Positions 11,441 through 63,209 of a stretch of DNA of 64,000 nt are shown in pieces; within the stretch, counting starts at the first letter, position 1; each line of letters starts with the position of its first letter. The notes beneath the pieces were generated by a model. That model did not search any database. It was not told the origin of the DNA and saw only the letters and a program-made list of their open reading frames with translations. The DNA comes from Balanoglossus misakiensis (lineage: Eukaryota; Animalia; Hemichordata), in NCBI GenBank assembly GCA_040954595.2, contig CM082598.2, positions 3,107,154 to 3,171,153 on the forward strand, in the 5' to 3' direction. Made by a program: the position numbers and the translations under genes.

Positions 11441-11487
<47 letters not shown>

Positions 11488-15600: not shown

Positions 15601-17990
15601 GGTACTAGAAATTGTAGTTCACCACGTGGTAGTGTATAGAACGCAATTCGTGTAGTGTCGTAATCTGTAATGTCTCGTGTAATTTACTTGCCAGAACTTC
15701 CGCTCTAAATTATGAGTATAGGCTAAATCATTCTTAGGTTTTTCCAGTCATTTCCGACTGGGCGTCGTTTGTGCTCGCCATCATGGCGGAACCACGCGGG
15801 TGGGTGGCGGGAGTTTCCCTTTACATGTACAGTATGTATACCTGCAACCTGTATAGTTGCGATGTGACCGAGGTGTCTGGTCGAGATGCATCGCAATCCG
15901 TCACGGGTGAGCTCGCAACGACTGTCAGGCTGTATAAATAGACCATAATTGAAACATCAGATTACCCCGCCGAAGTTATTCGACGAGGTGGCGGCCGAGA
16001 CAGCGTATATAGCCATTATCCGGAGCTGTTGTTTCGACGCCATTTGCAACAGGACAGAGGTTGGCCGTGTTGCTGGAGACGAGCAACGCTATTAAAACCT
16101 ATCACTGTGAACGTAGTGCCAAACTTGCCGGCGAAGTAGCAACCTAAACGAGTTTCTTGCGAAATTGGGGAACGCTTTATCTGACATCATCGTGTCGCTA
16201 AGAGGCGAGATTTGTGGATTTTTCTTTTAGTTTGACCGACATGAACTCATCAGAAGATAAAAACACTCCTGGGCGTGTAGCTCCCTTAGGCTCTACACAT
16301 TCCCTAAGTAACTTTCATCTTGTATGATCGACCTTTAAACGCTATCTCACAGATAGCTGGCATTTAAGCAATATCTTAATGATTATTTCCCCGCTTGTCG
16401 ATTTCCGGAATTGCTTTTTTTGCCTTCCTTTGCGATTTTGTCGTGGTTTGTGGGCGGAAGTGTATTTGTTTTACGCTAAGTACAGAGAGCAGGATTATGT
16501 GCGAGGCATTATCGTTTCTCATTTTCAATGTGGGTGGGGTTGCCTTGAACGTAAATTTGCATATAGGTAACCGGGACCAGGTACAAATTTTAGGACGTCG
16601 TGGTTACTTAATTCAAGATATAGTTATATGTCCGGAAAACGAGTCTTTTGACTAAATAGGTAAATCGTACTATATGGTTCTGCGACATGACAGCGCAATA
16701 ATTCTGCTGATCGACCTAAGTCAATTTGACCGCCAATGGCGTATCCACAGAAATGCGCAGAAGATACGCACAAATATCATTAACCGTGACTGGGTCCATT
16801 TGATTGATAACACAATTCCCAGCTGCAACTTCAATGCCAGGTTTTGAATGCAGCGCCCTCATCACCGTTGACAATTTTTTTCAATCGCCATCAAGATATT
16901 GATCAAAGTTGTTCACTTGACGAAACGTTACATAGATACTCCCATAGGCCCCCTTTTTGATTGGAATTTCACACATAGAGAGATATCGAATCAGGAAAGG
17001 AAATCAAAGCATCACTCAAACTGATTATGTCTTCTTCACCTTCAGTGCTTCCTTATCTTGTTGGTCTCAAATTGGATTTTTTTTGTACGCACGTAGAGTC
17101 AAATGCAAGGTCATTGTTTCACATTTTGTACGATTCTGTCATTCTGCAGTGGAGGGGCGTAGTGGTCGGTCTTAGGGAAATTTAGTGAGTGAGTGAGTGA
17201 GTGAGTCAGTCACTCAGTCAGTCAGTCAGTCAGTGAGTTAAAGGTTGGGTGGTGAGGTAGGGTGTGAGGGACAGACAGACAGAGAATGCATCACCGTTGT
17301 CCCACTGTCAATCTCTTTCAAACTGATGACAGCTGGTCCATTGTTCTTATCACTATTGTCATTTTCGCACCAAACATCTGTTATCTGGCACTTCGCTACC
17401 TGTCTTTTTAACGCACAGTTGCAAGCGCCCCCCAAATCAGGAAAATCTCAAAATGCCAATTCTTAGAATGTTTTTCTTCTACAGCCCTTTTCAACAAAGT
17501 TAAACCAAGTGAATCATATTGGCAGAGAGATATACTTTGTTTCGCTTTGTCTGGCCACTCTGTCTTTTGTATTTATCCAGGCGGAAACACAGTCATTCAT
17601 CACTGACAACTTGTCTCTGAAGGAGACCAACCGAGCATGTACTTGTAGGCTTTTGACACTAAACCCTCTTTAGAGTGCACATATTTCCAGACGCAACAAC
17701 AACATAACTATCAACACCTGGACCTTTCTCGCAGTGAAGTGACAGTTTCTATTTTTATTAGGAAAGAGAATCGGGAGCAATATGCCAGTGTAGCAATTTC
17801 AGACAAAGAATTGTCTGTCATGCAACATCTAAAATCAGCAAGTGTCTGGTTTTGTCAAACTTTGTTACAAATTACTCACTACGTACGTGGGTAGAACTGG
17901 CTTACTTCTAAGCTGGTGCCATGTTTTGCACGTTGCCATATGCAGTGACGCCATTTGCAAAATGACGTCATCACTTTGTGTGTGTGGACA

Positions 17991-18683
17991 TCATAGGTGT
18001 TTACTTACTTCGTCGTATACCACTGCATCGACAAGCTTGGGGTCAAGGTCAAAGTCCGCGTTTTCAGGGTTTCTCTTCACAAATATACCCGTTTTCCATC
18101 TTTTGGCGTCTCTTTTGTAAATTCCGCCCTTCCAGCGTTTGTCGGTTGCAACTTCGTTGTCGTCGTCTTTTTTAAAAAGCCCGCCTTTCCAACGTTTCTC
18201 TTCTTCCGCGTCCTTTTTGAAAAGTCCGGCTTTCCATCTTTTTTCGTCATCTTTCTTAAAAAGCCCGCCTTTCCATCGTTTGTCTTCTTCGACTTGGTCG
18301 TCATCTTTTTTGAAAAGTCCCCCTTTCCAGCGTTTTTCCTCGTCTATGTCATCGGCGTCTTTCTTGAACAGACCGGCTTTCCAACGCTTTTCGTCGTCTT
18401 TCTTGAACAAACCCCCTTTCCACCTTTTCTCCTCGTCTATAGTGTCATCCTTTTTGAACAACCCAGCCTTCCATCGTTTATCGTCGTCTTTCTTGAACAG
18501 ACCGGCTTTCCATCTTTTGTCCTCGTCTATGGTGTCGTCCTTTTTGAAAAGCCCCGCCTTCCATCGTTTTTCGTCGTCTTTCTTGAAAAGTCCGCCTTTC
18601 CACCTCTTGTCTTCTTCCACAGCCGCGTCGGCGTCCTTCTTGAAGAGCCCGCCTTTCCAACTTCTTTTGTCTTCGTCTTCGGC
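17991..18683 (-). CDS. Neuropeptide precursor exon 2: multi-copy peptide region
   Basis: KR-peptide-KK/KR units with acidic spacers: SWKGGLF x1, WKGGLF x5, WKAGLF x5, WKGGIY x1, WKTGIFV x1; synonymous codons vary among copies. Confidence 0.95.
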   Translation of the reverse strand, partial: AEDEDKRSWKGGLFKKDADAAVEEDKRWKGGLFKKDDEKRWKAGLFKKDDTIDEDKRWKAGLFKKDDDKRWKAGLFKKDDTIDEEKRWKGGLFKKDDEKRWKAGLFKKDADDIDEEKRWKGGLFKKDDDQVEEDKRWKGGLFKKDDEKRWKAGLFKKDAEEEKRWKGGLFKKDDDNEVATDKRWKGGIYKRDAKRWKTGIFVKRNPENADFDLDPKLVDAVVYDEVSKHL

Positions 18684-21600
18684 CTGTGAGACGAAAGAAA
18701 CAGAACAGTTTGGATTAGTCACATGTGCTGCCAGTTCACAATCAGAATTCAGATCTTTAAAGGGTGTTTGTCATCCCGTCTGCGACTGCGGGTATGGGTC
18801 CCATATGACACAGTTGTTACCAAGTCAAATTAGGTGTAAAAGTATAATTGCTACAATGTACGTCATAACATACAATATGGTTGTTACTTTGTGTTACACT
18901 GTAGTGTAACTGGTACAATGTACATCATTGCAAACAATGTGGTTGTTACTTTGTATTACACTGTAGTGTAACTGCTACAATTTACATAACTGCAAACAAT
19001 TAATGTTGTTACTTTGTAAGTACACTGTATATCATTACAAACAACGCGTCGCTTCCTTTTATCGGATTTTAATATTAATTTTATGGTCAATAATAGCACT
19101 CGGCACTCGCTGCGCCTATGTCTACACGACTGAAGCGAATTTCCTGCCGCCTTATCGTATCCCTTTGCTGGGTACCTGGAAACGCTCGGATGTCACTGTT
19201 TTCAGTCGAAGACAATCTACTGAGACAAATTTATTTGTTTCAAACGGCGGTGCCACTGGGGCTGACATCAAAGGAACTCAATACCGAGTGCATCAATCAA
19301 AATTTACAGATCTCAGATTTGTCTACCGAGGCTTCATGGACGTGTCTGGACACCGTCAAATGGTACATCTCTCCAATGGCTTTCTAATTGAAGGACACCG
19401 TTGAGTTGCTTTAGCGCTAGCACCAGTCTGTGTGTGTGAGAGATTTGTTTCAACGTCATCTCATCCGCAAAAGATACACCCAAAGTAATCTGACCCAACA
19501 GTCGTGAGTACATTTGAAGCGAAATCCAAAAGATCAAACTCTACTATAGTCTACTAAAACTACGAGCGACGTTTCCTCTTGTACTTTATTCTCACTTCGC
19601 GATATAATTAAAACTTTTATGATTCTGCGTGCTGAGGGCAACATTGGCCATCCATCGCCATTTTGGATGAGATTACCATCTCAATGAAAAGCCCTGTTAG
19701 GAATATATCTCGCACAATACTAAATCCGAGAGTTCCCTTTCCGATACCATCAGCAGCAATATTGAGAGAACGTCGCACACAAATGAACGATTGTACAGAT
19801 AAGAGCAATATCTTGTCTATCGCTTGCATTCTTATATTGATTCTGTGTCGTTTTAATCTTTCACCCCGAATAATGGCCCCCGCGAAAGTAGCCAAACCCA
19901 CGGTGGGTTGTAAAAAAGCTCCATTTCTTTTGATGTTATCGTTTATTCAATTCAACGTGGATGGTGGAGTCGCGGAAAACGAGAAAACCAGGGTGATACA
20001 TTGTCTGTCCGTCTGTCTGTCTGTCCGTCGGTCTGTCTGTCTGTCTGTCAACACTTTCGATGGATTGAAAAGTGTCACCTGTAGTTCCTTTAAAAGCAAA
20101 CTGGCGGCGAAACAACTGCGCTTGCAATTGCAATTGCTAATGAAAGTGGTAATGCGACTTGAAACACATCTCAGAAAATCGAGTTCATGCCGAGTCAAAT
20201 TATAGACAATTGCAAAGAGACAGTAATTCATCGGTGATCGAGCATTTGACTGAATTTTCATTCCGAGGTGGTTTGACGTGATGCATTGCGAGGAGTCAGG
20301 GGTTGGGGACGGACGGCCTTTTACAGAATGGAGTAATTTTCATTTCCCCGTGATAATCATCAGGGCGTCTAAGTGGCCCGCTTGGCGCACGCATCTGCCC
20401 TTCTCCAACCGACTTTAACGGTTTTATGGAGCACGATAACAATCAGATGTGCGTCTCCAAATAGTATTTCCTCGTTCCTCTAATTACCAGTTAATTACTC
20501 AAACCATATTGTTGAATATCAGGCAGTCAAAAAATAGGCCTTATCAACGGTTTCAATGAGAATGACGCTAGGGGGTCAGAACCTTGGACTGGATACAAAT
20601 TCGTGCATTGTAACACTATAGATTATATCTCTCTGTATGCGATTGATGAATGGCTAATTTGCATAAACATGGCCGACAGCTACGGTGTACTCTCGCTGAA
20701 CTATTTCTTTGATTATTCATATGGTGCGGAAGTAAATATTCATATAAATTCTTTCGGTTCTTCTTTTGATGTTATGAAGTTTCTGAAAGGGCTTTGGTTT
20801 GTCTATTGAGCGATGATAATGGCACACGCCTTTAGCAATATTTTCTAACCAGCGACTGAATTATTTTATAACAATCCAGTATCAAAATGTCCTGTAAATC
20901 GACCTGTATTTTACCGGATTTGAACCCAGACCTACCGCACCAGCAATTGAGGAATCCTTGGATAATCTTACATCTTTTAAGTCATGATTATGTTTGAATT
21001 GTCAGGACCGTTTTGATTTTTTGTGTTTTGTCGATAAAATGAGGATAGGGTGTATGCAAAAATGTAATATTAAGCGAAAACTACTTTCAAACGCACTTCA
21101 CAATAGGCGCGTGTTTGTGCAGATGATCACCTGTTAAAGAGCGCGAAACTTCGTGACCTGATTTTACAAAGTATAGGCTTGAAAGGTTCTGGTTTATCGG
21201 GAAATGTGATATTTGTTAGCAACAATTTAACACATCTGTCAATTGTCCGATTCGCTTTATTTTGATTTCCTCTGGGAACTAAGTCGTCCACGGTGACCTA
21301 ACTTGCATTAGGCCCTTCTCAGCGTGCTGTTATGGAATTCAATTATAAGGGGGAAGCAGTCTGTCTTGCATCACGTTACATTAGACATGCTCAGTTCGTT
21401 CAAATTGACATAATCGAGGATTCTGTTAAATCTGATATCTGCAGAGACAAAGGAAGAACCATTGTGAAATTTGAGCATATTTTAGTGGTTGTCAAGGAAA
21501 CACCAGATCGGCTAAAATTGTCATCGGAAGTTCTAAGGTACAAAGACTTCATTGTACACTAATCGTATATTCTAAAAATAATTTTTTTTTTTCTCTAAAT

Positions 21601-22284
21601 AATGGAACTAAAATCCGAAACACAGTTTACACATTTCCTCACACCAGCAGCAGAGGAATGTGGAAAGCTTTTTTTTTCATTCAGAATTTCATTTGCGTAA
21701 AAACGTGCAAGTTGACGGGTCAAATAAACAGCAATCCATTCATAACACGCCTGAGCATCTTTCCAATTCTTGAGCGGCGGCAGTTTCTGTGAATTGGCCA
21801 TGCGCGTGTCGAGAAGTGCACTTACCGCGCACAGCCGCAATAATTGCCAGTTTGAACGGTTTCTCCGGTGCATTAGCTCATACTTTGGAGTACCTTAATT
21901 TCCGTTAGTGGGTGTAGAACGTGCATCGTGGTACGGCACCTTGCCCTGTTTTCTAGTTCCGGTGCTTTCAAAACCCAGGTGACTACAGCCATGGCCGGAC
22001 TGTACTTCTATCTCTTGTAGTTCCGCAATTGAATTTCTGGGTGTTATTCGGTTGATTTGCTTTGTGATCAGCTTTATTTCCCCCTTGGATTTGTATCATC
22101 GGAAATGTCCTTTATTTCAGTCGTTTGGATGCTTTTTTCTTGTTTGCATACATTCAAACAAATCAAGGTACTTTAGACAGGATATTAAATAGACAAAGAT
22201 AATATAAATAGATAGATTTTTTTTTATAAGCAAATGAATGAATGTAAATAAGTAATTAAGTAAATAAGTAAGTAAGTAATGAAA

Positions 22285-22359
<75 letters not shown>

Positions 22360-25300
22360 CGTTGCTTACATAGTCTTGTAATGTGCGTGAAGGAAACAAA
22401 ATCGACTGTATCAAACGTATCATGTTTCGGAGATCTGCCCAATATAATTACATGTATTTCGAGTTGGACATACACTCGTTATCTACGCTAGGTGGGGGAA
22501 GTTGTACTAGTATAGTGCAGTATATAAGAGACGTGGATTTTCTTAATAGTACACGCGTGGCACATACATTGCGTTCATTGCGGTAATAAAGAATTGATTT
22601 GGCAACGGCTTGAGTTCGTTGTCAAGTGTTGTTTTGTGTGTGAGTATCGGTTGTGAATAATTACCCCGTTCTTGTAACAATTACAGAGCTACTGTATTTT
22701 ATACCACCTCTTGAAATGTGACAAGTCAAAATAGTTGTTTTCGTGGCGCTTCGTAATAAATCAGAATGAGTCTGTTCCAAAAAAAGGGTTGTCTGTCGTC
22801 AGCAAGTGATACACGTACCGATGGTAAAGATTGACATATCAGAAAACGTGTAAACCATTCGTCCTCATTGAGAATTCTCACTCTCTCGTCAGTAACCTGT
22901 TCGTTGTGCGCAGAAAGTAGCTGTCGTTGAAGGCCGCGTAATGCGTCTTACGATTAATTCCTATGAACTCTTGAGCAGGCAATTTCAAGTTTCATTACCG
23001 CGTGTTTTATTGATGGGTCCCCGTTTAGCACTCGTTAAGGTTACGAACCACCGTTCTCGGCGACCCCTTTACTAATGCGAATTCTGTCATGCGCTGTTTA
23101 TACACAAGAATGTGAAATTACCTGACAGTTCGCATTATCAACAATATCTCCATACCACGTGAAAATAATCTAGTTTTAGGAGGATTTATGCGAGAATTGA
23201 AAACACCCTGTAGGTCAAAACACAAGGGAACGATCAATTGAAATTCGTAATTTTGCTGAAAACAAACTTGTGTATACTGTTTACATAACCGTTTCGCAGA
23301 CTGCAGTAAAGGGTCTCGGATACTTCACAGCGACCAATTAAAACAGTTACATTCTCATTGCTGTCGATTTATAAAAGCAGTAAGCTAATTTAGCTGCAAT
23401 CGTTTTCAAACCATGACATGAATCTCGAAGAAATAACTCTTTGGCAAGCACAACACAAGTGGACTTCTCAGCGCCAATACAAGATCCGTCATTCTTTACT
23501 TCAGAACCTAGGGAACGTTGATATATTGAACATATATTGACAAAGCGCTTGAGTTCAAGTGGCGAACAGCTGAAATGTTTAAGAATTGCATTTTTGTCAC
23601 ATGCCAGAACAGATCACGGCAATTGGTATGAAAAAAAAACCATGTCTGCCTTGATTTATCAAGGCAGTGCATTGCAAGGCGAATCTTCTCAACGAAATCG
23701 GTCCGTGAGAGCTACTCAGACACAAAAAGTCGTCGCGCGGTGATAGCTTAACTAATAAAACAAACCTTAATCCAAGGTGTAATTTTCACGAGTCGAGATA
23801 AGAAAGTTTCTATATGATAACCTGGGAGACAGAAACCTCGTTTAATTCAACAGTTTCAACGACAGCCGTGGGAACGATTTATTCTCAGCTGCTTTTCCTA
23901 TCAGTGTTAGAATCGGTTAGTGAATAGAGGTCTCGCGAGATCGCGTTTTTGTCCGAAGATGTCTGCTGTCGACAACGAATCCCTCCCCAGCGGTATCATG
24001 ATATGTCTGCCATTTATCCAAATTGTCGTCCGGTTTTGATTTGATCGTTGAAAGAAGGGCAGAATAGAATCCTATCTCTTGTTTTCTTAAGAAAATTCTG
24101 AAGACGCATTGTGTCGATTTGTTTTTAAACAGAACAACCGTCGCTGTACAGAGATAACCGAAGTTAAAAACAATTACGCGAATGAAACACTTTGTCTGTC
24201 GTAAATTTTAACTCTAGACCATCGTCAATCAACTGAACAGCTTGATTGAAATGGTTAGCAGGGACATTAGGTCCAATTTAAAACGGCAGAGAATTTCTAG
24301 GGATCTCGCTCGTTTTTCTAGAAAAAAAATCTCGTAATGGGCAATAAGATTGGCCTCTATCTAGGTATTTCACACTAGTTAGCGATGTAGCTGTCGAGAG
24401 CCCCAAGCGCTGTGCGTGTTCTGAAGCCCAAAGGAGGCGCGAACGTAAACACCGCGCGGCCGTTAAGCGGTCGCTTGTTTGTCGCAAACACGTCTCTTAG
24501 TACCATAGTCCAAAGAACCAAAACATAGCAAAGAAACTGCTTTGAAATTTCATCTTACTTGAAAAATCCTTACATAAATGGACTAATAGCTCACGAGTGT
24601 ATGCGTCGAGTGAGGGTTGAAAATATGACGTCACTCTGATCGATAAAAAACAGCGTTGACTATAACATTATTCATTCTTGTTCCAGATAGAAGTGATAAA
24701 GGATAAAGATAGTTATGTATTTTTCGGGTGTGGTAGCTACACTAGTATTGTGATAATGACAGTCTTTAACTCCATAACAAACTGTTCATGTACATGCTTC
24801 CCCGGTGAATATTTACACAATAGTTTTGTGACATCCGGGTAACTTTGAAAACTTTTATTTAAATTACCATATTGCGTCACTAGCTAGCTTTACCGCTCTT
24901 GAAAAGTGGGACGTAGACTACAGTGTATTTCTCGAAACTTCAAAAATTTACCTTTTTTTTTTTACAAAAAAGCAGTTTCCCGTCCTCGAAAAGGAGGTTG
25001 CGCGTGCCAACAATTTGCTTTTTCAGTAAGAAAATCAGAAAACTCTTCAAGAAATCAAAGGCACGGTTAGATATCTTCAGCGTGTATTTGTGCTCCACGC
25101 AATACAGTCTTCACAATATTGTGATCTACTGGCACCAAATTAAATCAAGATTCAATGCTTTTAGGCAATGTAGGTGAGGTTGGCTTTGTTATGGGTCTAT
25201 GGAGACGTTTTAAAGGAGGAAAACTATAACTCGCCCTGGGCGAACAAGACTTCAAAAATGCACTAAAGGGCCGAAAATAATGAAGATTTTGGCAAGCAAT

Positions 25301-28300
25301 AGTACTGACGATGCAGTCATGTTCAAATAGCCAAAAGACGAAGCCTTCAAAATCTCTCAGAAGGGTTTCTTGAGAAAAAATACGTGGTTATTATATTTTC
25401 GCACCACGAGACGCAACGCGCCAGTCACGCGGCGCGCATTTGCGTACGTCCACACGCCAATTTCAAAACGCGTACACCTGTGAAATGAACATGAAGACAC
25501 TGTGTCTGTCTGAGAACAAACCTATTTGCCACTTTGTCATTTCAGATGATTATTCTTTCGAGATATATTTATATCACATCCCGCAGTGAGTCAGTGGGTG
25601 GCAGTGCGCTCATATTTCTCCAAGAATCGGTGTGTAAATACAGAATGGAATATCGACCTTGTTCTCACGACTTTTATTGTTAAAATTGTAATTAAGTTTC
25701 CCTGGCCGAGTTACTGAAAATTTACAATGGATATATAAACGCTCAGTGTGTTGCTTCCCGCATCACCTACAGCGTGGTAACCGTTAACTTTAATATCTAG
25801 TGCGAATAGCAATATCATATATACATACTGATTATTTTTATGGTTGCATTTCAATTCTTTAAGGTGTTGAAATATAATGAAGTGATGGTATCTGGTAATC
25901 CAGGGGAAAAAACACATGCAGTGTGCAATAAATTTTCCTCTCGCCTGTAAGTCATTATCGCTGTGATCAATTTCGTTCCCCCCAAGGATAGCGCGTATCG
26001 ATGAAACTGACATCACTTTTGCTGAGCGTTCCAGTTGCAATGAATATTAATCGTATCGGTGAATAGATTTTTTTGCGATCACGTCAGAGTGTGCAGTGAT
26101 ACTCACGTGACACGACGAGTCATTTTCTTATCCCTCTAACTATCCATCTATATCTATATTATATGCCCGTCTCCCCCTCTCTCCATATCCCCCCTTCTCT
26201 GTCTGTCTGTCTGTCTGTCTGTCTGACTGTCTGTCTCTGTCTGTCTGTCTCTGTCTGTCTGTCTCTCTCTCTCTCTCCCAATTATGACAACTATGTCTAC
26301 ACAAAACAAAAACGACACAACAAAATCGAATATGTTGCATAAATATGACTGGCAAGCCCTATATGGTTTTGATATCACTGGAGTGTGAACGCTGATGTAC
26401 ACAATGGCAGTCCACTCTCAAACTATCACTCTCAAACAAAATACTGTACCAAACGACTGCGTGCTTTTGCACAAAATAGGCTAATCGCTGAGATAGCAGC
26501 ACGTGTGTTTATACCTCAGATCAAATCACACTTTCGCTCTATCTTCTGACAGTGAAACGTAACGTGAGAACTTTAAAATAAAAAACTAATTTACTGATAT
26601 TGCGTGTGTATAACTCATCATCTCGCCCTGAAAGCAGGCGACAAGGACGTGTGTTTTTTAATTTCTTTTCTGTCAGTACCCTCTAACGACTTTCACACCA
26701 TTTTAATTGGAGCAGTAAAATCTCTTTGTATTTCGCGGATTACCCGGAGCCAACAATCAGAGCTGAAAAACAGAGTTAAATGTGATGAGAATCGAACTTA
26801 ACAAGTATAGATCTGATTTATGCCCGGCTCGCTGCTTTTCACGCTGGCCACTTTTTGTCGTCTGCTCCTTATTTCTCGGCTGACGAGTTCTCTTCTGCGT
26901 GGCAAGCACCGTCGCCTGTACCTTGTACTCCAATTTAATGAATGTTGGTGTAGAATTGTCAAAGAAGAGGAAGAGTATAGAAAACGATAGAATGCCTAAA
27001 AACGAGCAACGCGAAAAGGATGTCGATAGCAAAAGGAAACGGTTTGAGCTAGACGTGGGAAGAAAATTTCTGCACATTTTTGAAAGATTTGGATAGTAAA
27101 TTCTTGGAGGGGCTTACATCGGGAGGAGGGGCTTACTTATACGTAATATTTACAGCTCTTTTTTTTCCATTTATTCTATTTCAGTGTTCACCGAATCAAG
27201 ATTTAAAGGAGAGAGAGAGAGAAAAAGTTCTACCAGCTTGAGCAAATATAAATCCAAAGGTTACATATGTAAGTAAGTAATTCTTGTTATCTCTGATAGC
27301 AATCACATAGCTTTCAGTCGTCGGAAATCTATTTTTTTTGTTATCGGTAATTCTTCGATATGTAACATATAATTCACCGCGAGAGATAAAAAGTAAAAGC
27401 AAATGCCGTAAGGAGAGAGCAAGAAGCAGGTGTGTCCTCCTAGAAATGAGAACATTTGTCGTTTTCCCTCGCTGCCTCTTTTTGCAAACACGCGAGCAAT
27501 ACTTCACTGAAAATATTGCCTCGACAGATTTGATATACAACAAGCTATTGTGCCCTCGAAATTTAATGCATCGATTTTCTTTCGTTTATTTGAGAGCAGC
27601 AAACTAACGTTTGAATTTAACCTAGAGACCTGCGTTTACAGTAGCTCGTAAGATTTGTCAGTTATTTTGACACAAAATAGACAGGCATCTCGGATATGTT
27701 TATCCATATTCAAATAAGAGCATACACACAGTCTGTAGTAGAATAGGCGGGTCAAATCTTTCTTGTCTCTGCATGGGGGCAGTCCCTCGCTGTACTTACT
27801 CATAACTGTGGGCTCAGCTTGGTGGTTCAAATTTTGATCCTTCTAAATGAGAAGCCGCCGAAATTGGCGGATGGACATAGAAAAGGTAATTTCAAAGATA
27901 CGATCACGTTTTGTATCGTGGACAGGTATTATGAGCAGCAAGGTGCAGCCCGAAAGGGGACGCTATAAACATCTGTTTTCTAGTGCCAATGACAGACACT
28001 TATGTCAAATGGTGTTGTCTGGCCATCACCGTCAGATGTCGATCGGCGTTTTACAAATATGGGTCCGTCAGTGACGGAGGTGTCGGGATCCCTTTCTCCC
28101 GTAGAGCTGTGCTAAATGGCTGTTAACCCTCGCTGGAAAATCACACCTGGGTTTTGATCATTTCTCAAATTGCAATTTGGCTCGGAAGCAGCCGTCAAAC
28201 GCGGACAGGAAACACGTCGACCCCGCGCACATGGGGACTGTCTATGGCATCTCATTGCTGGATTGTTCAACTCAGAATTATTTCTTTTACCGCCTTTATT

Positions 28301-30531
28301 AAATTCGCCAAATTAAATTTCTCAAATTTAATTTTGGTTTTTGACAAAGTAAATGCACAAGTCGGTCGATTATCGATCCTGTGTGTTCGTTTATCTCGCC
28401 GTTGTAAAGGCGACTTGCACGTCGAATCACGGCTGCGACTGCGGGCACGAGTCCCACAAGGCAGTTACTAGCATGCCAAAGTAGGTGCACAGTATAACTT
28501 CTGCTACAATGTACGTCATTTCAAACATTGCGATTGTTACTTTGTATTACACTGTAGTGTAACTGCTACAATGTACATCATTTCAAACATTGCGATTGTT
28601 ACTTTGTATTACACTGTAGTGCAACTGCTACAATGTACATCATTTCAAACATTGCGATTGTTACTTTGTATTACACTGTAGTGTAAGTGCTACAATGTAC
28701 ATCATTGCAAACAATGTGGTTGTTACTTTGTATTACATTGTAGTGTTTGCGTAGAGGGCCCGAAAAATAGTTGCTCTTGCTATCAGCATCGTGAAAGGGA
28801 GACCTTTAGTACTTAATCATAAGAGAACGTCTCAATAATGGACATTTTTTGTGCTAAACGGCGGGATAATTACAAATTGGTTTCGGAACGGCAAATAGAG
28901 TACATGTAGTTCAGGATAAATAATATATTATCTCAGTTCCTCCTCTTTCGTCAAAAGCGCATTTACTGCGGAAGAATGAAATTGGCTGGCGTGTTTCAAG
29001 AGATGTAGTCGAGAATTGCTCTTACAGCCTTCGACAACAAAAGCTAGATTGATTGAATCAGAGTGTTTCTTTATTGCGATAGCCAAACATATCAGGGAAC
29101 ACCTTGAGAATTACGCGTGTTGTTGTCTGGAGCAACGAACTGTGGGCGGCAGAGGAAGGAGACGCGCGCGCTTGGCGTGTCGGACCTTCAGCATGTTTGT
29201 AACGACCTAACTCGGAAGTGTCGTTAAAGTCCTTATAGCTGCCACTCAAAGCATATCTAAGTCAATGAAATCTCCCCCTTATCTTTAGTCGACAAATGAC
29301 ACCATCTTGAATTTGTGGAGATTCTAACATGCATGTGTACATACACCATGGCAGTTGTATACTCTTGGAATGGGTGGATGAATAATGGGGTGTGGCACCT
29401 GTTTAATATTTAACTTGATTATATTTAAACGTGCAGCCACAATCATAGGTTGATAATATGTTTGTGAACATCCATCGATTACCTCCTTTAAATAGACCAT
29501 TCTAAGTTTGAAAGTCAACTCCTGAAAATAATGCAAAAATAGCTGGTACTGGGGCTTTAAGAAGCGGAGCATAGATGAGCAGATATTAGTTTCACTGTAA
29601 GCCTCGAGAGTGCCTGAAAGCGGCCGGCTATTAGCTCCGCGACCGCCGGTGATTTCTTAAAAGGGGGCCTGGGAGAAATTCCGGTGATATTGAAGAGCTT
29701 TCGCTCCCAGAAACGCAAGTTTCAAGTCGTAACCTTGCATTACTATTACATGTAATGCACCTAGCCCTAGCGGAGCATCCCCCATAGCGATTTCAGCTGC
29801 GCAGAGTGACTGGAAAAAAATCTTATCAAACCATATCAACGCAAACGAGGCTGCTGGCGTGGGACACTTTCCTCAAGAAGTAGTTGTAATTCTTCAGTGC
29901 TTGCGCTGTGTGCGACCACGATAGTTTATACAGATAAGCTAGCCCGATCCTTGAAATAAAAGTCAGCTTATGTTTTTGCGAGGAAGCTGACGGAAAATCG
30001 CTCGCCAATAAAAAGTATACACATCCATATAAACAAAAGCGATCATCATAACCTTGTTCCTTCTGAACCATACCGATTTTATTTTACTAGGTTCTTATAA
30101 GACATGGACGTTTAGTGCCAGCGATCAAAGTGTCATGCATAAAAACAGGTTGTTATAGAAAACTGCTACTAACTAGCATTGCAGGTAGCTGTCTTGTGGT
30201 GAAATTGTCCCAGAAGGAAAGAACATCTTTCACTCTGAAATCCTAATACTCTAATTCCCGTGTTTCATGTTGTATCGTTATTAGAAATGAAAAGGCCAAT
30301 GGATATATGCGACTGAGTAGAACGTGTCCGCGATTGTAATTTTAAGATTACTGAGGAGTTGGTTAGCGCGGTCGGTGGCATTTGGTAATGTTGGTGGGTT
30401 ATGAACTTATTATCTGATATTGGAAAAAAAATAATATAATTAGGCGAGACTTTTACCTGTTCATCAGCGAACGCCTGATACGCGAGAGCTAGCGTGATTC
30501 CCAGGAAGGCAAACACGGTGACCGATCTCAT
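17991..30531 (-). CDS. Prepro-neuropeptide, 2 coding exons (30531-30457, 18683-17991), 255 aa, 13 WK[G/A]GLF-type peptides
   Basis: Signal exon ends CAG|gtaaaa (phase 0) and the repeat exon starts tcacag|GCC (phase 0). TATA box at ~30789-30796; AATAAA (minus strand) at 17754-17759. Confidence 0.85.
18798..19030 (+). mobile_element. Dispersed element copy B: head + ~3 units of the 62-bp core
   Basis: Same head and core as the copies at 10881 and 28451. Confidence 0.75.
22282..22358. repeat. (AAAT)n microsatellite
   Basis: Read directly from the sequence. Confidence 0.95.
26198..26277. repeat. (TGTC)n/(TC)n microsatellite
   Basis: Read directly from the sequence. Confidence 0.9.
28451..28746 (+). 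mobile_element. Dispersed element copy C: head + ~4 units of the 62-bp core
   Basis: Near-identical tandem units gtgtaactgctacaatgtacatcatttcaaacattgcgattgttactttgtattacactgta. Confidence 0.8.
30457..30531 (-). CDS. Neuropeptide precursor exon 1: signal peptide
   Basis: MRSVTVFAFLGITLALAYQAFA-DEQ with an AFA cleavage site, followed by a phase-0 donor. Confidence 0.82.
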
Positions 30532-30788: not shown

Positions 30789-30918
30789 CTTATATAGGCC
30801 GCAACGGGTGTGCGTCTGCTGACGACTGCCTAGCCCCCCGGAACGAGCACGCGGAATAAAAAAGTAACGTCACCGTTGCCCCGGGTTACTGCATAGCCGG
30901 GCCTGTTGCCATGGTAGC
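30789..30918 (-). promoter_or_regulatory. Proximal promoter of the neuropeptide gene: TATA box, half-CRE and X-box-like (RFX) motifs
   Basis: Minus-strand TATATAAG at 30789-30796, ~260 nt upstream of the ATG; gtgacgtt at ~30866-30873; GTTGCCATGGTAGC at 30905-30918. Confidence 0.55.
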
Positions 30919-43393: not shown

Positions 43394-43566
43394 CTACTCC
43401 GGACCGTTGCGTTGATGTGAACAGTATTCGGCGAGTTCCTCCCAGTTGCAGCCAGTCGTGTCACTGCAGCATTCCTCGGTGGGACTGGCACGACGAAATC
43501 TTGTCATTCTCTTGTTCATGTCGTTATTCTCCAGGAAATCGTTCGCTTTGACTTGATCCAAAAAGG
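43394..43566 (-). CDS. Ilp7: dilp7-like coding exon 3: C-peptide + A chain
   Basis: (TC)n tract then ctcag|CC TTT TTG; RFRR furin site; CC-x5-C-x8-C A chain; AATAAA (minus strand) at 43151-43156. Confidence 0.93.
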
Positions 43567-46500
43567 CTGAGAGAGAGAGAGAGAGAGAGAGAGATAGACA
43601 GAGATAAATTATCCAATCTAAACTGTTGCTCACTTGCTTACTGGCTGACATTTTTCAGCCCAAATGAAAATGCACAGCTCAGTACTTGACCTTTTCGACT
43701 TGTATAAGTGTTATTTTATCCTAGAAAAAACTGTACATATCATTAACGGCGTATTTTCCATCAAAGGGACATTAGCTGTATATTTTGGCTTTATTTCCAG
43801 TATATGTTCTATGTACCAAATTGCACTGATTTCTTGTTCTACTCCAAACAACATGCTATCCCCCAGTACTAAGCTTGTCAACATAGCCTGTATGTGTCAA
43901 TAAGCTGAATCGAATAGGCCCACTGGGCATTTCGTCATGTTTCGGGGATTTGACTAAGAAATTGCTGCAATAGATACACAAAACAAAAACTGAAAACATG
44001 GCGAAAAGTTACAGCAATAATTCTAAACGCTCACGTGTCGAAATCACATTTGAAAAGTGCACCACCCACTCTGAAAAGGCAAATGTTTCTGAATCTGTGT
44101 CCGTTGTAACATTTATACAGAAAAGTCGCGCGGCTGCCTAGAGGTAAAAATGCAGCAACACATCCTGTTAATACCCCCTCCAAGCCAACGAACAAAATCC
44201 TGTGTGCCCGTGGATTAAGGCTGCATGATTGATAGGTTCATGACTTCACGGTGACATTAAAACCGCAATCATTCATCAGACGCCATCTTGTTCTTGGACA
44301 GATAAGAGGAAACGTTGTAGTCAATTTGTTCTTATTAAACTTACGTCACGCAACGCTGAATTGTGGTGAGCAAAATATATTAATGATTTTTTTTATTACA
44401 TTAAACAACAACACTGTCTATGACCCCGTGAAATGATATCATAATTCTCCATCAGAGCCTCCGATATAGATTCTGCCGGAAGCGGGCGGAGAGACACTCA
44501 GTATGTGACCTAATGTCACGTGAAAGCGCCATCTCTGATAGCGCCCTCTGTGATGCGCGACAACCAACATGACTTGTCATTCCGAGCCTATTGACATCAG
44601 TTTCTGACGTCACGCCTGTGAGTCTCCCACTGTAACACTACCCAGCAAATCAGGTTACAGAGAAATAAATGGAAATTTCGCTTTCCACCAGCACATGTAC
44701 ACAGTTGAACTTATGACCACGCGGGAACTGGGGATAGCGTTGCGGGAGTGGCTGAAACCAGACTCTATTTAACCTCGTCCCACGGGACGTTTCTGGGTGG
44801 ACAGGAAATTACAAATCTTCCCCAAAGGGTGGATATAACCCTCGCTCTGCACTTTCCGTTTTCAAGACAGCTTCTACGAATGAAACATCTAGTTAGAACA
44901 GGTTTTACGAGTTTGGTTGTTCAGCATTAAACCCCGATAGCTGCCAGTTTTTGCATTATTTTCAAAATTTTAGTTTCAAACTTAGAATATTAATGTTCCA
45001 CTTAAATGAGTCAATTGATGGGTAAACATATTCATATTATCAACCTCTGATAGGGCTATACATGAAAATAATAAACGGGTTACGCACCCGTTTATTCAGT
45101 CGGCCATTGCAATAATAGTAATACCGCACATTGTATGCGCACATGGGTATTAGAATATCCAGAAATATTGTCGTCTGTCGACTTAGGATAATAGAATAAG
45201 GTAGAATTTTTGTATCGTTTATATTGTGCTTTAAATGGCAGGCACTGGGCTTTAATGCTTTGCTTTTCTGGCTTTAAATTCGTGACCGATTGTCCTATTC
45301 TTAGAGATCAGACTATCAGACTATAGATCAAGATGGCTGATAGGTTTTTAGGGATGTTCTGCTCCATCAGCGCGCGAAAATATCGAGCGAAGTGAACATG
45401 GTTGCTCTCTCCTCCTATGGCACCTGGGTATAAGTCAAGGACCAGCGTATTTAGCGCAGATGCGGATCCTCCACACGTGTATGGAGATACTTGAGTGGAG
45501 GGACGCGTGTGGTGATAGACGGAGCAAAATTGCCTCAATTTGAAATTCAAAATGGCCGCCAATGATCGCTGTGTTCAATCTATAAAAACAGGACGATGTA
45601 CACCAAGACTCCCAAAACACTTTCATATAGCAAAGAGTTGACACATTTTGAGGACTATGATAATTTTTCCGCAAATCTGTGCCGGGGGCGCGAAAACAGC
45701 CGGAGACAAAATTATTTGTAGACTTAACCACGCATTTTATTTTCTGATTGTTATTCTCATGACCGGCCAATGCAACAAGTTCCAACTGGCTTATGAAGGC
45801 AGTGGTATCCATGGCAACAACAGTTAAGCTTCTTTGCCTGAAATAACACAGGATAATCCAACACTCAAGATGTTTGTTTTATGCAAGTGTTCATCTATGA
45901 CCTTAAGCATGTATAGAATTTCCAGGGAGATTTCGGCTTTTTTCTCAGTGATTTTGCGAGACCAGCTACCTCAAACCGCCATGAAATATCGCGAATATCT
46001 TTGCCATTAATAATTTTTTTGTATTAAATTTGACAGCAAGCTGCATTTTTCACTAATTTGCGATTTATTTTCAGAAAACAATTTTTATGTTACTAAGATA
46101 CTGTTTACATATCTCTTCTTTAAAATCAGTCAAAAAATTAAAACGCGATTTGATGTTCAACTCGTCCTTGCTGCAGGATTTGTGAACGATAGCCTTCTTG
46201 ATGACGTAATTTCTGGTACGGACCCCGTACTACATCATTTCTGGTACGGACCGCATACTACATCGTCAGGTTGAAGTACATGTTTTCTGGGGCAGCTGGT
46301 TTATGTTAGATTTAAACCACCTTCACGTTCTCACACGCAGCAAAACTAACAAAGAAATGTCCCAAAAGGGCGATTTTTTCTCTCTTTAGAAATCGCTGTG
46401 CGTGTTTGATATCCGCGTGCGAGTCAATAGTTTCGTCAAGGAGGCACTGTATATAGAAGCAGTTTCTCTAGGGTCTATAATAGAAGCAATCAGAGTGGGT

Positions 46501-48223
46501 GGGCGTGGCCCCTTAAGAGTGTTAATCTCACCAACTGATAAGTACAGCACCTGGGATTTATTCATAGCCAAGGCCAAAGATTATTTTATCAAAAACCGTG
46601 ATAATATTTCGATGTCGAAGTGGCCGAAACAAACATTTAGTTTGTCACTTTCATGATTTGCTATCTTTTTTAAAAGTCTTCTTTGAAGTGTTAACATTGT
46701 CAATACATAATTTTTTACATGTCTGTCTAATGACATATGCGCATGCTCTTAGCGTGTCTTTTGAGACAAAGGCAAGGTTTTTTTTCAAGTGCAACGTTAG
46801 TGTCCGAAAGCTGGTTTATGTAAATCCAGAATTTTAACGGCATATGTCCACTCTTGGTCTAAGAGCAAATATATCACTTGATGACGTATCAATAGCCGTG
46901 GCTCATATTTTTTTTTGAAAGTCCGGACATCACATAGTTCAATAGACGATTGTCCGTCTCGAGATCTCGCATAACAAGGCATATGGGAGGAAATACTCGT
47001 GTGACACGTGACAAACAACACGTGGCCCTTTATGTTACCGCGGCACAAAGGTCACAATTTTTGGTTAAAATCTTCACTTATTCTAGTTTCATTACACAAA
47101 GCTTGATTTCTATTACTTGGCTATAGCAACCGTTGTTACATTAAGTAAATTGAAAACATAATCCAAACTTACGAAGTTCAGCTCTTTTTTTCTCGCCTAC
47201 GGCATAAATGTCGACCATACAGGCAAAAATAACGTAACTGTACAGCGAGTTCCTACATTTCTGGTGTGTTTCTGTGTGCCAGACGTCATGCCATTCACTT
47301 TCCGTCCTGCAGAGACAAACAGACAAATGCCATGAATAATTAAGCGTCACGTGACTGCCGACATTTCCTAGTCTTTCCTTCGACGCCCTGAAACTTAAAA
47401 GACAATCTTTAGGGTTCGCATTGCAGTGGGTGAGATCAAGGAAGGGAGGCTGGGGGATATTCCTACATAATTACAACCAGCCTTGTTCTACTTTTGACTG
47501 AATTCTTCGAGATCTTCGATACAGCTTTCCCCTCGCAATGAATAAAACTTATAGGTAGGGCTGAAGTACATGTACTTTACAAATCGCGCGGTCATCCATC
47601 ATTTTGAGTAGCGACTAGTGACATGCACTGAGCATCGACCACATCAGAGAAATAGAGACCAGTTGTTGAACCCCCTACGCTGTGGTCATTGAACCGCCTC
47701 GCCCTATGTCGTATTTTCACTAGTCTAGCATCTCGCCGTGTGCTGCTCGCTTTGTGGCCAAAACCAACGTCTAGCCTTGTGTGCCAATGGCCCAATAAAA
47801 CCGGATACCTCCTTGCTGGGCATTGTGATGAATCTAGCGTCCCTTTGGAGTCAATCACAGACTTTCTTTCCCAATGATTGGACAAAGGATATACATATGT
47901 GTAATTAAGGATGGGTAACAGATTAGCCCTGCCTTCAATATAATCTTACACCCAATCAACATTGTTCAGTTTATGTGTAATTGACTTCAATGGCACGCTA
48001 GTTACAACACAACTCCCATCTAGAAGTATTAGGATTTATTATACGTTACTAGATTCGGAAGCAAAGCGGACAAAACACGGAGACCCTATTTTCACATGCA
48101 CACTTACCGACTGCCGTATTTGGCGATGAGATCTTCCACTGTTTCGTATGTATTAACTCTCTTTCCTGAGATTATCACGTTGAAGGCTAAGCAGACCGCC
48201 AATATCGTTAATAGTGTTCTCAT
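43394..48223 (-). CDS. Ilp7: dilp7/relaxin-like insulin-family peptide precursor, 3 coding exons (48223-48108, 47306-47173, 43566-43394), 140 aa
   Basis: MRTLLTILAVCLAFNVIISG-KRVNTYETVEDLIAKYGSRTESEWHDVWHTETHQKCRNSLYSYVIFACMVDIY...KKRAELPFLDQVKANDFL...RFRR-ASPTEECCSDTTGCNWEELAEYC. The W..VWH.ETH..CR, AC..DIY and GC.WEE.AEYC motifs are dilp7-type. Splice phases 2 and 1 match. Confidence 0.9.
44927..45255. mobile_element. TTAA-flanked MITE remnant (ttaaagccc...ctgcc family)
   Basis: ttaaaccccgatagctgcca ... tggcaggcactgggctttaa; related ends at 7056-7118, 29541-29560 and 38262. Confidence 0.5.
47173..47306 (-). CDS. Ilp7: dilp7-like coding exon 2: B chain
   Basis: ctgcag|G ACG GAA...CTT C|gtaagt; C-x11-C B chain. 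Confidence 0.92.
48108..48223 (-). CDS. Ilp7: dilp7-like coding exon 1: signal peptide + N-terminal extension
   Basis: catttcag|AAA ATG AGA ACA CTA...GGC AGT CG|gtaagt; this frame is absent from the ORF track. Confidence 0.88.
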
Positions 48224-48861
48224 TTTCTGAAATGAAAATGTAGAGAGAAAAAAACTGAGCTAAATTTTGAAAGCAAATTGCACCGAGGCGCGATTGTAGC
48301 ACAGTAGGCGAAAATCGTAGTTTTGTTGCTGCAGAGAGTGAAGTCATCGTTTTTTTCTTTTGAAACAACACTGAAATGAAAAAGGTGTGGTCTACAAAAA
48401 ATTACCTGAACAGAGTAAAGCGTATTTTATACTTAACTGGGCACAGCGCATCAAATATGTTCAGTTACTCTCCGGTTGAAAGCACACAAAAGGCAAAAGT
48501 TGAAAAATGACACGTTCACAGTACAAGTCCCGATGGCCAACTACAGGTTTAGCTTAAGCCAAAGTATGATTCCAAATCTTGTTGATTTAAGGCGCTACGC
48601 TTGTATTTATAACGAAATATCGTTTCTAGAAAATTCTAACATTACATTATATTATATTAGGCCTACGCCCACATAAACAGTCGCATGGAAAATTCAAGAA
48701 AATTAGCCCATTTAAATGAGCCATTAAAAATCGTGATAATAATGCAAACATTAGCAGCTATGGGGGATTTAATGTTAGATAGTAGTAACAGAAAAAAACA
48801 ACAGATATTGTAGATGGCAAAGTTAGTCACTCGGGTACCGGTGTCAGATGATGTGGTCGAT

Positions 48862-48908
48862 TAAATCATGGACGTAAAAAGAGAAGGACTTTTTACGTCC
48901 ATGATTAA
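48862..48908. mobile_element. Perfect hairpin, probably a collapsed TIR element with TAA target duplication
   Basis: taa-ATCATGGACGTAAAAAG-agaagga-CTTTTTACGTCCATGAT-taa. Confidence 0.55.
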
Positions 48909-49255
48909 ATTAATGTAAGGAAAGACCGCCTCGGCCAGAGCGTTGCTTGACGACGGTCGCCAGCTTCGGTGGCATGGCGATCAATAGGCGATTTGATAGA
49001 TACATCCGGTCGGGAGACCGCCCACTTGGCGAATCATGGTGCCGAGGCGGAACCCCCAAAATGGGGACGGTCAATATTTACCGTGCTCTCTCGAGACACG
49101 CTGGTCCCGTTGAGGTCAAACGGCCAATAACGCATACTGCAGAATACGTCACTAGCCCAAATTATGATCTCATCGGCAGTCGAAGTTCGTCATAAAAGGT
49201 CGTTGAGTTCTAAGTTCACATTTCGCAACACGCAAGAAATCTGATGCAACATAAA

Positions 49256-49484
49256 TGTATGTATGTATTTATGTATGTATGTATGTATGTATGTATGTAT
49301 GTATGTATGTATGTATGTATGTATGTATGTATGTATGTATGTATGTATGTATGTATGTATGTATGTATGTATGTATGTATGTATGTATGTATGTATGTAT
49401 GTATGTATGTATGTATGTATGTATGTATGTATGTATGTATGTATGTATGTATGTATGTATGTATGTATGTATGTATGTATGTAT
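49256..49484. repeat. (ATGT)n microsatellite
   Basis: Read directly from the sequence. Confidence 0.97.
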
Positions 49485-61356: not shown

Positions 61357-61650
61357 CTAAACAGTCACTGCGACATGTTTGGGTTCGCCTCGCGGCCTGA
61401 TTAGCGATTTATGTGACGTTTCCGCCTCGTCCCTGTCGTACTCAACGAACGGCTCTTGCGATCCCTCGCCCTCCTGAGACTCCGGACGTTTTCCCTTGGT
61501 GCCGTTCCTGCTGGACACAGCCGTTCCATCCTTCTCCCGGTGGTGCTTATACTCAAACTCGGTGTCTCGCACCATCCACCAATAATCGTCGGCTTCTCGA
61601 CTGTCTTGGTCCACGGCCGGGGCCTCATCGGCTTGCATTTGCGTACGAGC
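61357..61650 (-). CDS. IGF: IGF-like coding exon 3: acidic C-terminal tail
   Basis: ttattgcag|GCT CGT is phase 0 and matches the upstream donor; 97 open codons with coding-like composition. Confidence 0.75.
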   Translation of the reverse strand, partial: ARTQMQADEAPAVDQDSREADDYWWMVRDTEFEYKHHREKDGTAVSSRNGTKGKRPESQEGEGSQEPFVEYDRDEAETSHKSLIRPRGEPKHVAVTV

Positions 61651-62753
61651 CTGCAATAAAAGAACATTTTCATAATTTACAACAGAATTCGACAGTCAAT
61701 AGACCATTACCCGAACTCCACGAGACCCTTCGAGATCTCGCGTGGTCAGGCAGTTTATGTGGGCGGATAGTCATATGACTCATGACAAATAACATATGTT
61801 AAAGGGCACAAAAGTTACAATTTTGTTATTATAAACTCTGCACCTATTTTAGTTTGATACAAAGATTGACTTGTATTACTTGGTAAGCAACCCGTTGCTA
61901 TGGTAATTAACCAAGTCTCAATCTCGAGAAATATCGCCATGAACAGAAAACAGTACTCAGTAAATTTTAAATATTATGTTGCCTTGTGCTCTCGAAAGTG
62001 CAAACTAACTTACCAATTCGCCATCTGCAATGATTCTTGTAATTAAGGTCGGTTTCGCTTTTGTGCTGTTTTTCGTCTTTGCACGGGACTTTTTCCGCCG
62101 GTGTTCATCTGAAAGCCTTGCTTTTTCTTTATTCAGTTTCTTGTGTTTCCTGTGTTTTCGGTAAGAGCTCTTGTCCCGTCCGTGGATTTCGTCGTGTTCG
62201 TGTCCTTCGTAGTTGTCGTGCGAATGTTCAGTTGCTGTCTCTTCGTCTTCGATGTCGTCATCCGTCAGGTGGTAATCGTCTGCTGCATCTCTGGAATTTG
62301 ATTGGTCGTTTTCGCCGCCATCTTTGTGCGCGTCGGTTGTACCACTAACAGTGCGCGGCGTCGTTGTCGAGTCTGTTGTTGTTGTTGTTGTTGTGGGTTC
62401 CTCTTCCGGTTCCTGGTTGTACTTCCGGTAATAATCCTCCTCGTCCCAGTTGCCGAGTTTGAAGCCCTCGTATTTCTTGGCGGGGTCGACGTCCTTCGGC
62501 CACGGCGCACAGTAGCTCTCGATGGTCGGGTAGTCGCACGTTTTCTCGCAACATTCGACGACGATGAGACCCGTACCACGCCGACGCTTGCTTCTTGAAC
62601 TGCCGCCGCCGAAAAATCCATTGGCGGCTTCTTGTGTTGCAAACACTGAATAAAAAGGTGCACATACATGTTATCCAGGAAAATGATAATATTGTGACAT
62701 TAGGGGAAACGTGTTTCGATGTGTTTTCGGATAACAATTATATCTAAGATTTG

Positions 62754-62840
<87 letters not shown>

Positions 62841-63209
62841 CAACCACCACCGCCAAAAACATGACCACCACCACCAACATTTCTATCAACATAACCACCA
62901 CCACCACCACCACCACCACCACCAACAACAACAACATCATCATCATCATCCACCACGACCACCCCCACAAACATCACCACCACCTTCATCGCCTCTCGAG
63001 ATAAAATCACATGAGTATACCCTACCTGATTCCCTTGCCATTCTACTTTTATGATGTTTCGAAACGTCCGTGTAGTAGCCTCGCCCATGGCATACCAGTG
63101 CCAACATATCGGCCAGTGTTCTTCCGCAGAGTCTATCCCAAGCCAAACCCTCTCCGCAAAGAGCGAAGATGATAAGCGTAACCGTCAATGTCCTACTCGG
63201 TGAAACCAT
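61357..63209 (-). CDS. IGF: IGF-like peptide precursor, 3 coding exons (63209-63026, 62645-62014, 61650-61357), ~369 aa
   Basis: Signal MVSPSRTLTVTLIIFALCGEGLA; B chain WDRLCGRTLADMLALVCHGRGYY; A chain GLIVVECCEKTCDYPTIESYCAP; long charged D/E extension; canonical phase-1 intron in the C domain. Confidence 0.9.
62014..62645 (-). CDS. IGF: IGF-like coding exon 2: C domain, A chain and most of the E domain
   Basis: attcag|TG TTT GCA; IV.ECC...C...IESYC; TTG|gtaagt donor. Confidence 0.93.
62754..62950. repeat. (CAT)n/(CAC)n/(CAA)n repeat filling much of the IGF C-domain intron
   Basis: Read directly; lies between the donor at 63026 and the acceptor at 62645. Confidence 0.95.
63026..63209 (-). 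CDS. IGF: IGF-like coding exon 1: signal peptide + B chain
   Basis: aaacag|AAAAAT ATG; LCG..L...L..VC..RG motif; TCA G|gtaggg donor. Confidence 0.92.

Follow-up and report, generated by a model that had tools for sequence, protein, structure and literature searches.

A candidate multi-copy neuropeptide precursor with thirteen predicted WK[G/A]GLF-type peptides in the hemichordate Balanoglossus misakiensis

Introduction

Hemichordates are placed between echinoderms and chordates, and the subject of this study is a candidate neuropeptide gene of the hemichordate Balanoglossus misakiensis that would give rise to 13 short peptides of the type WK[G/A]GLF. The gene lies in a stretch of 64,000 nucleotides (GenBank assembly GCA_040954595.2, contig CM082598.2, positions 3,107,154 to 3,171,153 of the forward strand), called the window here and used for all coordinates.

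Several described systems provide the background for this locus. The hemichordate neuropeptidome has been described as incompletely annotated for want of peptidomics (10.64898/2026.04.13.718258), and for a number of receptor groups, kisspeptin-type receptors among them, the hemichordate ligands had yet to be identified (PMC9400282). Lineage-restricted multi-copy precursors are routinely found, with 14 types in xenacoelomorphs (PMC6188537) and 20 predicted precursors in crinoids (PMC9793003). The free-acid multi-copy peptides LWDY and AWDF were confirmed by mass spectrometry in acoels (PMC6188537).

One of the closest described families is that of the pedal peptides and orcokinins (PP/OK). An Asp-x-Leu core is defining for its echinoderm members (PMC9793003), and its peptides have 13 to 18 residues in starfish (PMC5656890) and 10 in spiralian pedal peptide 2 (PMC8557429). 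In the available text of PMC5656890, no receptor was known for the family as of 2017 and no hemichordate member had been identified, with the suggestion that divergence may hide them. The peptides predicted here share with this family a C-terminal end, mostly unamidated in PP/OK, that combines a Gly with aromatic or hydrophobic residues.

Peptide repertoire and gene structure

The joined reading frame, which depends on a predicted splice, has 255 residues and contains 13 peptide units: SWKGGLF (one copy), WKGGLF (five), WKAGLF (five), WKGGIY (one) and WKTGIFV (one). KR precedes every unit, KK follows 11 of them and KR the other two, and no unit carries a terminal Gly. A search of the whole window in six frames for the pattern WK[G/A/T]G[L/I][F/Y] gave 13 occurrences, all of them in a single frame and none in the other five, and 10,000 codon shuffles of exon 2 produced at most one unit. 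An initial annotation, made from the sequence alone, had listed the same 13 dibasic-flanked peptides and had described them as non-amidated products of a Cys-free precursor; all 13 were found again, with no amidation Gly in any unit and 0 Cys in the 255 residues. The calculated masses (MH+) are 707.39 for WKGGLF and 721.40 for WKAGLF.

Exon 2 (minus strand, 17991..18683) is 693 nt long, comprising 230 codons and a stop that ends at 17991, and its first base, 18683, follows a pyrimidine-rich AG acceptor. It holds all 13 units, acidic spacers of two to nine residues and a 26-residue tail. The eleven core peptides (SWKGGLF and the five copies each of WKGGLF and WKAGLF; 18174..18662) all show the arrangement KR-peptide-KK-D. 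The two divergent final peptides (18078..18134), WKGGIY at 18134-18117 and WKTGIFV at 18098-18078, are each followed by KR. A 90-nt higher-order period is present at 18211-18627, and it suggests that the peptide array grew partly through duplication of two-peptide blocks.

Since exon 2 lacks any Met, an upstream exon is required. The candidate is exon 1 (minus strand, 30457..30531), 75 nt or 25 codons from the ATG at 30531 to a phase-0 donor (CAG/GTAAAA) at 30457. Given the predicted splice, it encodes a signal-peptide-like leader with nine-residue hydropathy of up to 2.56, and placement by the -1/-3 rule puts the probable cleavage after residue 22. The predicted phase-0 intron between the two exons (18684..30456; GT...AG) spans 11,773 nt, and the two-exon, phase-0 structure across an intron of about 11.8 kb that had been proposed earlier is thereby exact in its coordinates.

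A scan for hydrophobic ATG...GT frames from 18.7 to 43.4 kb returned exon 1, its longer read-through, a large number of microsatellite frames around 39.4 kb and, as weak signal-like candidates, 34205, 34178 and 19829. Exon 1 was the sole candidate in this interval found to combine a clean leader with a TATA box, the DNA upstream of the weak three lying outside that scan. Within the intron, a filter limited to phase-0/0 exons gave one weak internal exon candidate of 33 nt (26627-26595).

The initial annotation had the gene bracketed by a TATA box and a polyadenylation signal. The TATA-like box TATATAA (minus strand, 30790..30796), whose function is putative, lies 265 nt 5' of the ATG, no other ATG intervenes between 30796 and 30531, and the motif has a background of 0.08 per kb on the minus strand. 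The polyadenylation signal is weak evidence taken alone, as AATAAA (minus strand, 17754..17759; about 230 nt past the stop) has a background of 0.94 per kb. Half sites resembling the cyclic AMP response element are found around the TATA box at 30872, 30824, 30702 and 30666, and the same stretch is mildly CpG-rich (16-17 CpG per 200 nt versus a median of 8). One 62-nt tandem repeat is present twice within the predicted intron, at 18841-19029 (3 copies) and 28501-28746 (4 copies), 9.5 kb apart.

Coding status and selection

The repeats are coding and under purifying selection, as several comparisons of the units show. First, the 11 core units comprise 10 DNA sequences but only two peptide sequences, with pS of 0.85 versus pN of 0.04 over 55 pairwise comparisons that are not independent of one another. 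Second, variation falls on third codon positions (7 of 8 variable) and spares first and second positions (1 of 8 each). Third, the 10 units of the form KRWK[GA]GLFKK differ on average at 0.20 of their nucleotides, and the amino-acid difference is 0.06 in the coding frame versus 0.30-0.55 in the remaining five frames. Purifying selection confined to one frame indicates a real coding gene and not satellite DNA. Furthermore, the peptides are near-constant whereas the spacers differ in length and sequence.

Identical tandem repeats were once misread as deuterostome MIP precursors, according to the supplement of PMC8557429. In those repeats the DNA itself is identical; in the WK[G/A]GLF units the DNA has diverged and the peptides have been kept, so that selection acts on the peptides. 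Similar repeats between dibasic sites, with unconserved spacers, are general marks of multi-copy proneuropeptides. With a predicted leader, dibasic-flanked repeats and selected peptides, the layout is indeed typical of a convertase-processed multi-copy precursor, as first proposed.

Searches for related precursors

Run unfiltered against 1.84 billion representatives, phmmer yielded 14 matches at E 0.001, of which the top four are multi-peptide precursors and the other ten unrelated repeat proteins. The top four, with E from 3e-59 to 1e-10, are P0002 (Lymnaea, CAL1530180.1), P0003 (Physella, XP_059146050.1), P0004 (Biomphalaria) and P0005. Three of them come from pulmonate snails; all four are 674-951 residues long with 21-30 peptides each, including 12-22 hexapeptides between KR and KK, such as FMRGLI, FMRGLV and FMKGLV. 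Together with the cluster members P0016-P0024 they form an F[MI][RK]G[LF]x peptide family, whose entries are unannotated or auto-named, one member of the P0004 cluster as 'FMRF-amide neuropeptides-like'. An Aplysia 'FMRGF-amide' prohormone is reportedly known from work on D-amino-acid peptides. The string FMRGF does not occur in the PMC8557429 supplement; of the ten FMRGL places there, the four examined are all proenkephalins.

The E-values of this search are inflated by repetition, as between 6 and 41 of every 100 controls with random peptides also pass E 0.001. At the level of single peptides, the snail hexapeptides score 7-9 against WK[G/A]GLF with BLOSUM62, a value that about 1% of random hexapeptides reach. 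In another of the 14 matches, the fungal secreted repeat protein P0014 (Gigaspora), basic sites enclose WTGGLW units that score 21-27. This resemblance is almost certainly convergent, and because the fungal units outscore the snail peptides, similarity of such short motifs is no proof of homology.

Word-seeded searches with exon 2 gave no match among 7,991 candidate proteins of 126-403 residues at E 0.001 and none among 7,996 candidates of 404-2000 residues at E 10. In simulations, precursors with 3-13 copies and one substitution per peptide were recovered by the scoring step in 21-25 of 25 cases per class, and it is thus the word filter that limits these searches. Pfam gave 0 families in exon 1 or exon 2, PDB sequences gave 0 matches and the ESM Atlas no match at 0.9 or above; its nearest clusters, which include MIP (the top one, 0.82), tachykinin and allatostatin-A precursors at 0.77-0.82, are at lead level, scores below 0.9 being reached by shuffled proteins as well. 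A pattern scan of metagenomes, which is uninformative for an animal gene, gave 0 matches.

Searches of full-text literature for the exact peptide strings returned nothing relevant, the one match being an unrelated antibody paper, and for the motif no ambulacrarian peptide among 25 listed papers, as judged by title or abstract start. Searches of the supplements of PMC6188537, PMC9793003 and PMC8557429 turned up no such precursor; other precursor lists and figures could already name an orthologue. The PMC8557429 supplement (3.9 million characters) contains KRWKG and KRWKA 0 times each; the 8 of 84 KRSW places examined there are all MIPs, and the WKGG places (7) and GLFKK places (16) were examined in full.

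Interpretation

Collectively, these results make it likely that the gene is genuine and encodes a multi-copy neuropeptide precursor whose architecture is standard and which appears to be unnamed. On balance, we consider it probable that two predicted exons specify 13 short free-acid peptides for neuronal release and action on a receptor. For the present, we leave the family without a name and regard it as observed in this enteropneust alone, the short resemblances to other precursors being provisionally read as convergence.

By analogy with general prohormone biology, the signal peptide would direct the product into the secretory pathway and be removed after about residue 22. Convertases of the PC2/PC1 type would cut after KR and after KK or KR, carboxypeptidase E would trim the basic residues, and the acidic spacers would be discarded. 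The expected products are ten hexapeptides of two sequences and three variants, all free acids, because the absence of a Gly donor would preclude amidation. Neuronal expression and signalling through a rhodopsin-type G-protein-coupled receptor may be supposed. Prohormone-processing machinery is broadly expressed in Saccoglossus neurons (PMC10508912; 10.64898/2026.04.13.718258).

Several points weigh against this interpretation. Transcript, expression and peptides are all predicted from the sequence. KK is cut less readily than KR, and longer products from uncut KK are possible, as is cleavage at the internal Lys. In the final two units, KR nevertheless stands where the others have KK, and this exchange, together with the identical layout of proenkephalin, supports cleavage at KK. 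No orthologue with WK..LF peptides is found among the 14 phmmer matches, yet at least one Ptychodera flava protein is present in the searched collection. Finally, the authentic snail peptides score above 97-100 of 100 position-scrambled versions and above 99-100 of 100 random hexapeptides, which argues for a contribution of the peptides beyond a shared architecture and so against a purely lineage-specific origin.

This last result also bears on the alternative that survives best, namely that the gene is an old precursor: a shortened member of PP/OK, a homologue of the snail F[MI][RK]GL[IV] precursors, or both, which kept the free G-L-hydrophobic end and lost the Asp-x-Leu core. We regard it as unlikely. 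In the PMC8557429 supplement, pedal peptide-2 accounts for 15 of 16 GLFKK places, 3 of 3 GIFKK places and 3 of 4 GLFKR places, the remaining GLFKR place being a nematode entry in the orcokinin block, although these counts stem from few distinct sequences repeated over files (for GLFKK, 5 places in 3 sequences). A nemertean example there reads MLDPISGGLF-KK. The divergence that may hide hemichordate PP/OK members (PMC5656890) would fit such a history, and so would the top four phmmer matches, with their KR-peptide-KK hexapeptides and often the same three-residue acidic spacer.

The evidence on the other side is of several kinds. None of the 13 peptides contains an Asp, and the core that defines echinoderm PP/OK is accordingly absent. 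At 6-7 residues, the peptides are shorter than their starfish and spiralian counterparts. The similarity of the snail hexapeptides is at the 1% level noted above and is exceeded by that of the fungal WTGGLW. Moreover, in the sea cucumber the one mapped pedal-peptide gene, PPLN2, lies on LG1/LG12 and the insulin-like gene to LG18, in a draft mapping that is ambiguous (PMC6586643). A more specific version, in which WK[G/A]GLF represents the missing hemichordate branch of PP/OK, reduced to the free G-L-F terminus, and forms, with the snail precursors, a short-peptide arm inherited from the protostome-deuterostome ancestor, is to our minds slightly more doubtful still.

The peptides could instead be a gland or epidermal product with a non-neural role, be it in mucus, in defence or in pheromone signalling, in the manner of fungal acidic-spacer precursors and of the multi-copy acidic-spacer precursors of frog skin. 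The architecture is not specific to neurons, the fungal protein P0014 combines the same layout with a similar peptide, and the lack of a detectable orthologue would fit a fast-evolving exocrine product. This explanation is improbable all the same: near-invariant peptides under strong purifying selection fit a ligand constrained by a receptor, the peptides are very short for antimicrobials, and the gene adjoins neuroendocrine insulin-like genes, a point that is suggestive only.

Descent from a deuterostome MIP/Wamide precursor that lost its C-terminal Trp-amide and acts on a GPR139/142-type receptor is very improbable. Brachiopod MIPs begin with SWKSGGM and GWKSGGM (PMC8557429 supplement), which can be compared with the SWKGGL of the first unit, and the top ESM Atlas cluster (0.82) is a MIP precursor, a score that shuffled proteins can attain. 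GPR139/142 are sister to the protostome MIP-type receptors and are activated by aromatic amino acids and peptides (PMC8557429, PMC7270403). However, MIPs are defined by two Trp residues 5-8 apart and an amidated C-terminal Trp that is critical for activity (PMC7270403, PMC8557429), and here each peptide has a single Trp, no Gly donor and F, Y or V as its last residue. Human and amphioxus sequences are the only GPR139-like ones named in the available text of PMC8557429, and binding at GPR139 is not competed by Leu-enkephalin, which is a short free acid of the GGFL type (PMC12287315).

Non-coding tandem DNA or a dead gene with a frame open by chance can be dismissed as hardly credible, for although Tandem Repeats Finder reports periods of 39-90 nt across 18160-18611 and the gene model is predicted from DNA alone, divergence is synonymous-only and in a single frame, the splice signals are intact and 13 units run without frameshift or stop.

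Genomic neighborhood

The nearest gene found upstream of the peptide gene is a predicted dilp7-type insulin-like peptide gene with four coding exons (minus strand, 43394..50142), which matches the P. flava dilp7 orthologue (PMC8286064 supplement). It is followed further upstream by an IGF gene with three coding exons (minus strand, 61360..63209). The exons of the latter are 77%, 50% and 36% identical to P0001, an insulin-like peptide of P. flava, and a search with its protein gave one match among 315 candidates (51% to a P. flava protein); the gene also carries a long charged C-terminal extension. These two neighbours very probably place the animal among the enteropneusts, near P. flava and yet distinct from it. 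Both genes are on the same strand as the peptide gene, whose start lies 12.9 kb downstream of dilp7, and no further gene was recognized between dilp7 and the peptide gene in the open-reading-frame listing. An insulin-like cluster is conserved in Saccoglossus, sea urchins and insects (PMC8286064), and the two predicted genes are part of the conserved ambulacrarian cluster. The position right downstream of this cluster provides a synteny anchor for orthologues that sequence searches would not see.

The neighborhood also raised MCH as a candidate, on the ground that human PMCH is adjacent to IGF1; it was rejected, the precursor here having 0 Cys. An MCH-type C-terminal peptide with a Cys pair (PMC4772807) is likewise absent.

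On the other side, a multi-exon gene occupies about 6440-11850 of the plus strand, tail-to-tail with the peptide gene. Its product, probably secreted, has a PAN-like domain, thrombospondin-1 repeats, a sushi-like stretch and a C-type lectin domain.

Significance

The initial annotation had suggested an undescribed ligand family. The precursor has the defining features of none of the named families compared, which agrees with that suggestion, and the routine discovery of lineage-restricted precursors makes it less surprising than it first appeared. In practical terms, a 13-copy precursor under strong selection offers two hexapeptides that are inexpensive to synthesize for receptor screening and, probably, a marker of a neuron type. 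Orthology with PP/OK or with the snail precursors, established by synteny or by a receptor, would raise the significance, an outcome that we hold to be rather unlikely. A relationship to PP/OK would fill a gap named in the literature (PMC5656890), and the minimal hexapeptide would then be a direct handle on the receptor that the family lacked as of 2017; otherwise, the gene adds one more lineage-restricted family, which is useful but unsurprising.

Comparison with known peptide systems

The MIP/allatostatin B/Wamide peptides resemble those described here in their KR-W or KR-SW starts, the WKxGG of brachiopods and acidic spacers, and they differ in the second Trp and the amide. Proenkephalin shares short free-acid peptides, ends with GG and an aromatic residue, and the KR-peptide-KK-D layout (PMC8557429 supplement), and is set apart by its N-terminal Tyr-Gly-Gly-Phe and its Cys-rich N-terminal region. 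An opioid precursor was accordingly rejected, there being no YGGF and 0 Cys; opioid peptides are described as without apparent invertebrate homologue in the available text of PMC5818035.

Within the same phylum, the Saccoglossus achatin precursor is also multi-copy, free-acid and provided with acidic spacers (PMC10508912, PMC8557429), but its peptide is the tetrapeptide GFGN, and achatin was rejected since no GFxx tetrapeptide is present (PMC6188537, PMC8557429). VIamide, WFMRFamide and NNFamide of Saccoglossus are amidated, VIamide being set apart by its description. Among echinoderms, the sea cucumber SWYG peptides share SW-x-G-x-L (PMC6586643), and they have one copy per precursor, monobasic sites and, at least in SWYG-3, an amide; they were rejected on these defining features. 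Starfish corazonin ends in WKAG (PMC4772807), but it is a single-copy amidated peptide directly after the signal peptide, an arrangement absent here, and corazonin/GnRH was likewise rejected. Galanin/allatostatin-A and kisspeptin were rejected for want of an amide. No match was provided by the crinoid PCNP1-20 (PMC9793003), by the ophiuroid np18/26/27 (PMC5627052) or by those multi-copy peptides of xenacoelomorphs that the available text of PMC6188537 names.

The earlier statement that the peptides match no known family therefore holds for defining features and needs qualification for the C-terminus: spiralian pedal peptide-2 also has a free G-L-hydrophobic end ahead of KK, and the snail hexapeptides have the same length and flanks. 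Compared to the WK[G/A]GLF precursor, those of the snails likewise contain many free-acid hexapeptides with an aromatic residue 1, a basic residue, Gly4-Leu5 and a hydrophobic residue 6, and they likewise have KR before and KK-D after the peptide, often a three-residue acidic spacer, and 0-1 Cys. They differ in that only two of six residues are identical, the snail start F-[MI]-[RK]-G-[LF] (Phe-Met-Arg/Lys) being replaced here by W-K-[GAT]-G-[LI] (Trp-Lys-Gly/Ala), and in that the snail proteins, at 674-951 versus 255 residues, hold many longer and some amidated peptides. The PP/OK precursors, represented by spiralian pedal peptide 2 and echinoderm PPLN, are similarly multi-copy and mostly non-amidated, with [GSA]-G-[LIF]-[FIV] directly before KK/KR. 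Unlike the peptides of B. misakiensis, theirs possess the Asp-x-Leu core, are about twice as long and lack the Trp-Lys N-terminus.

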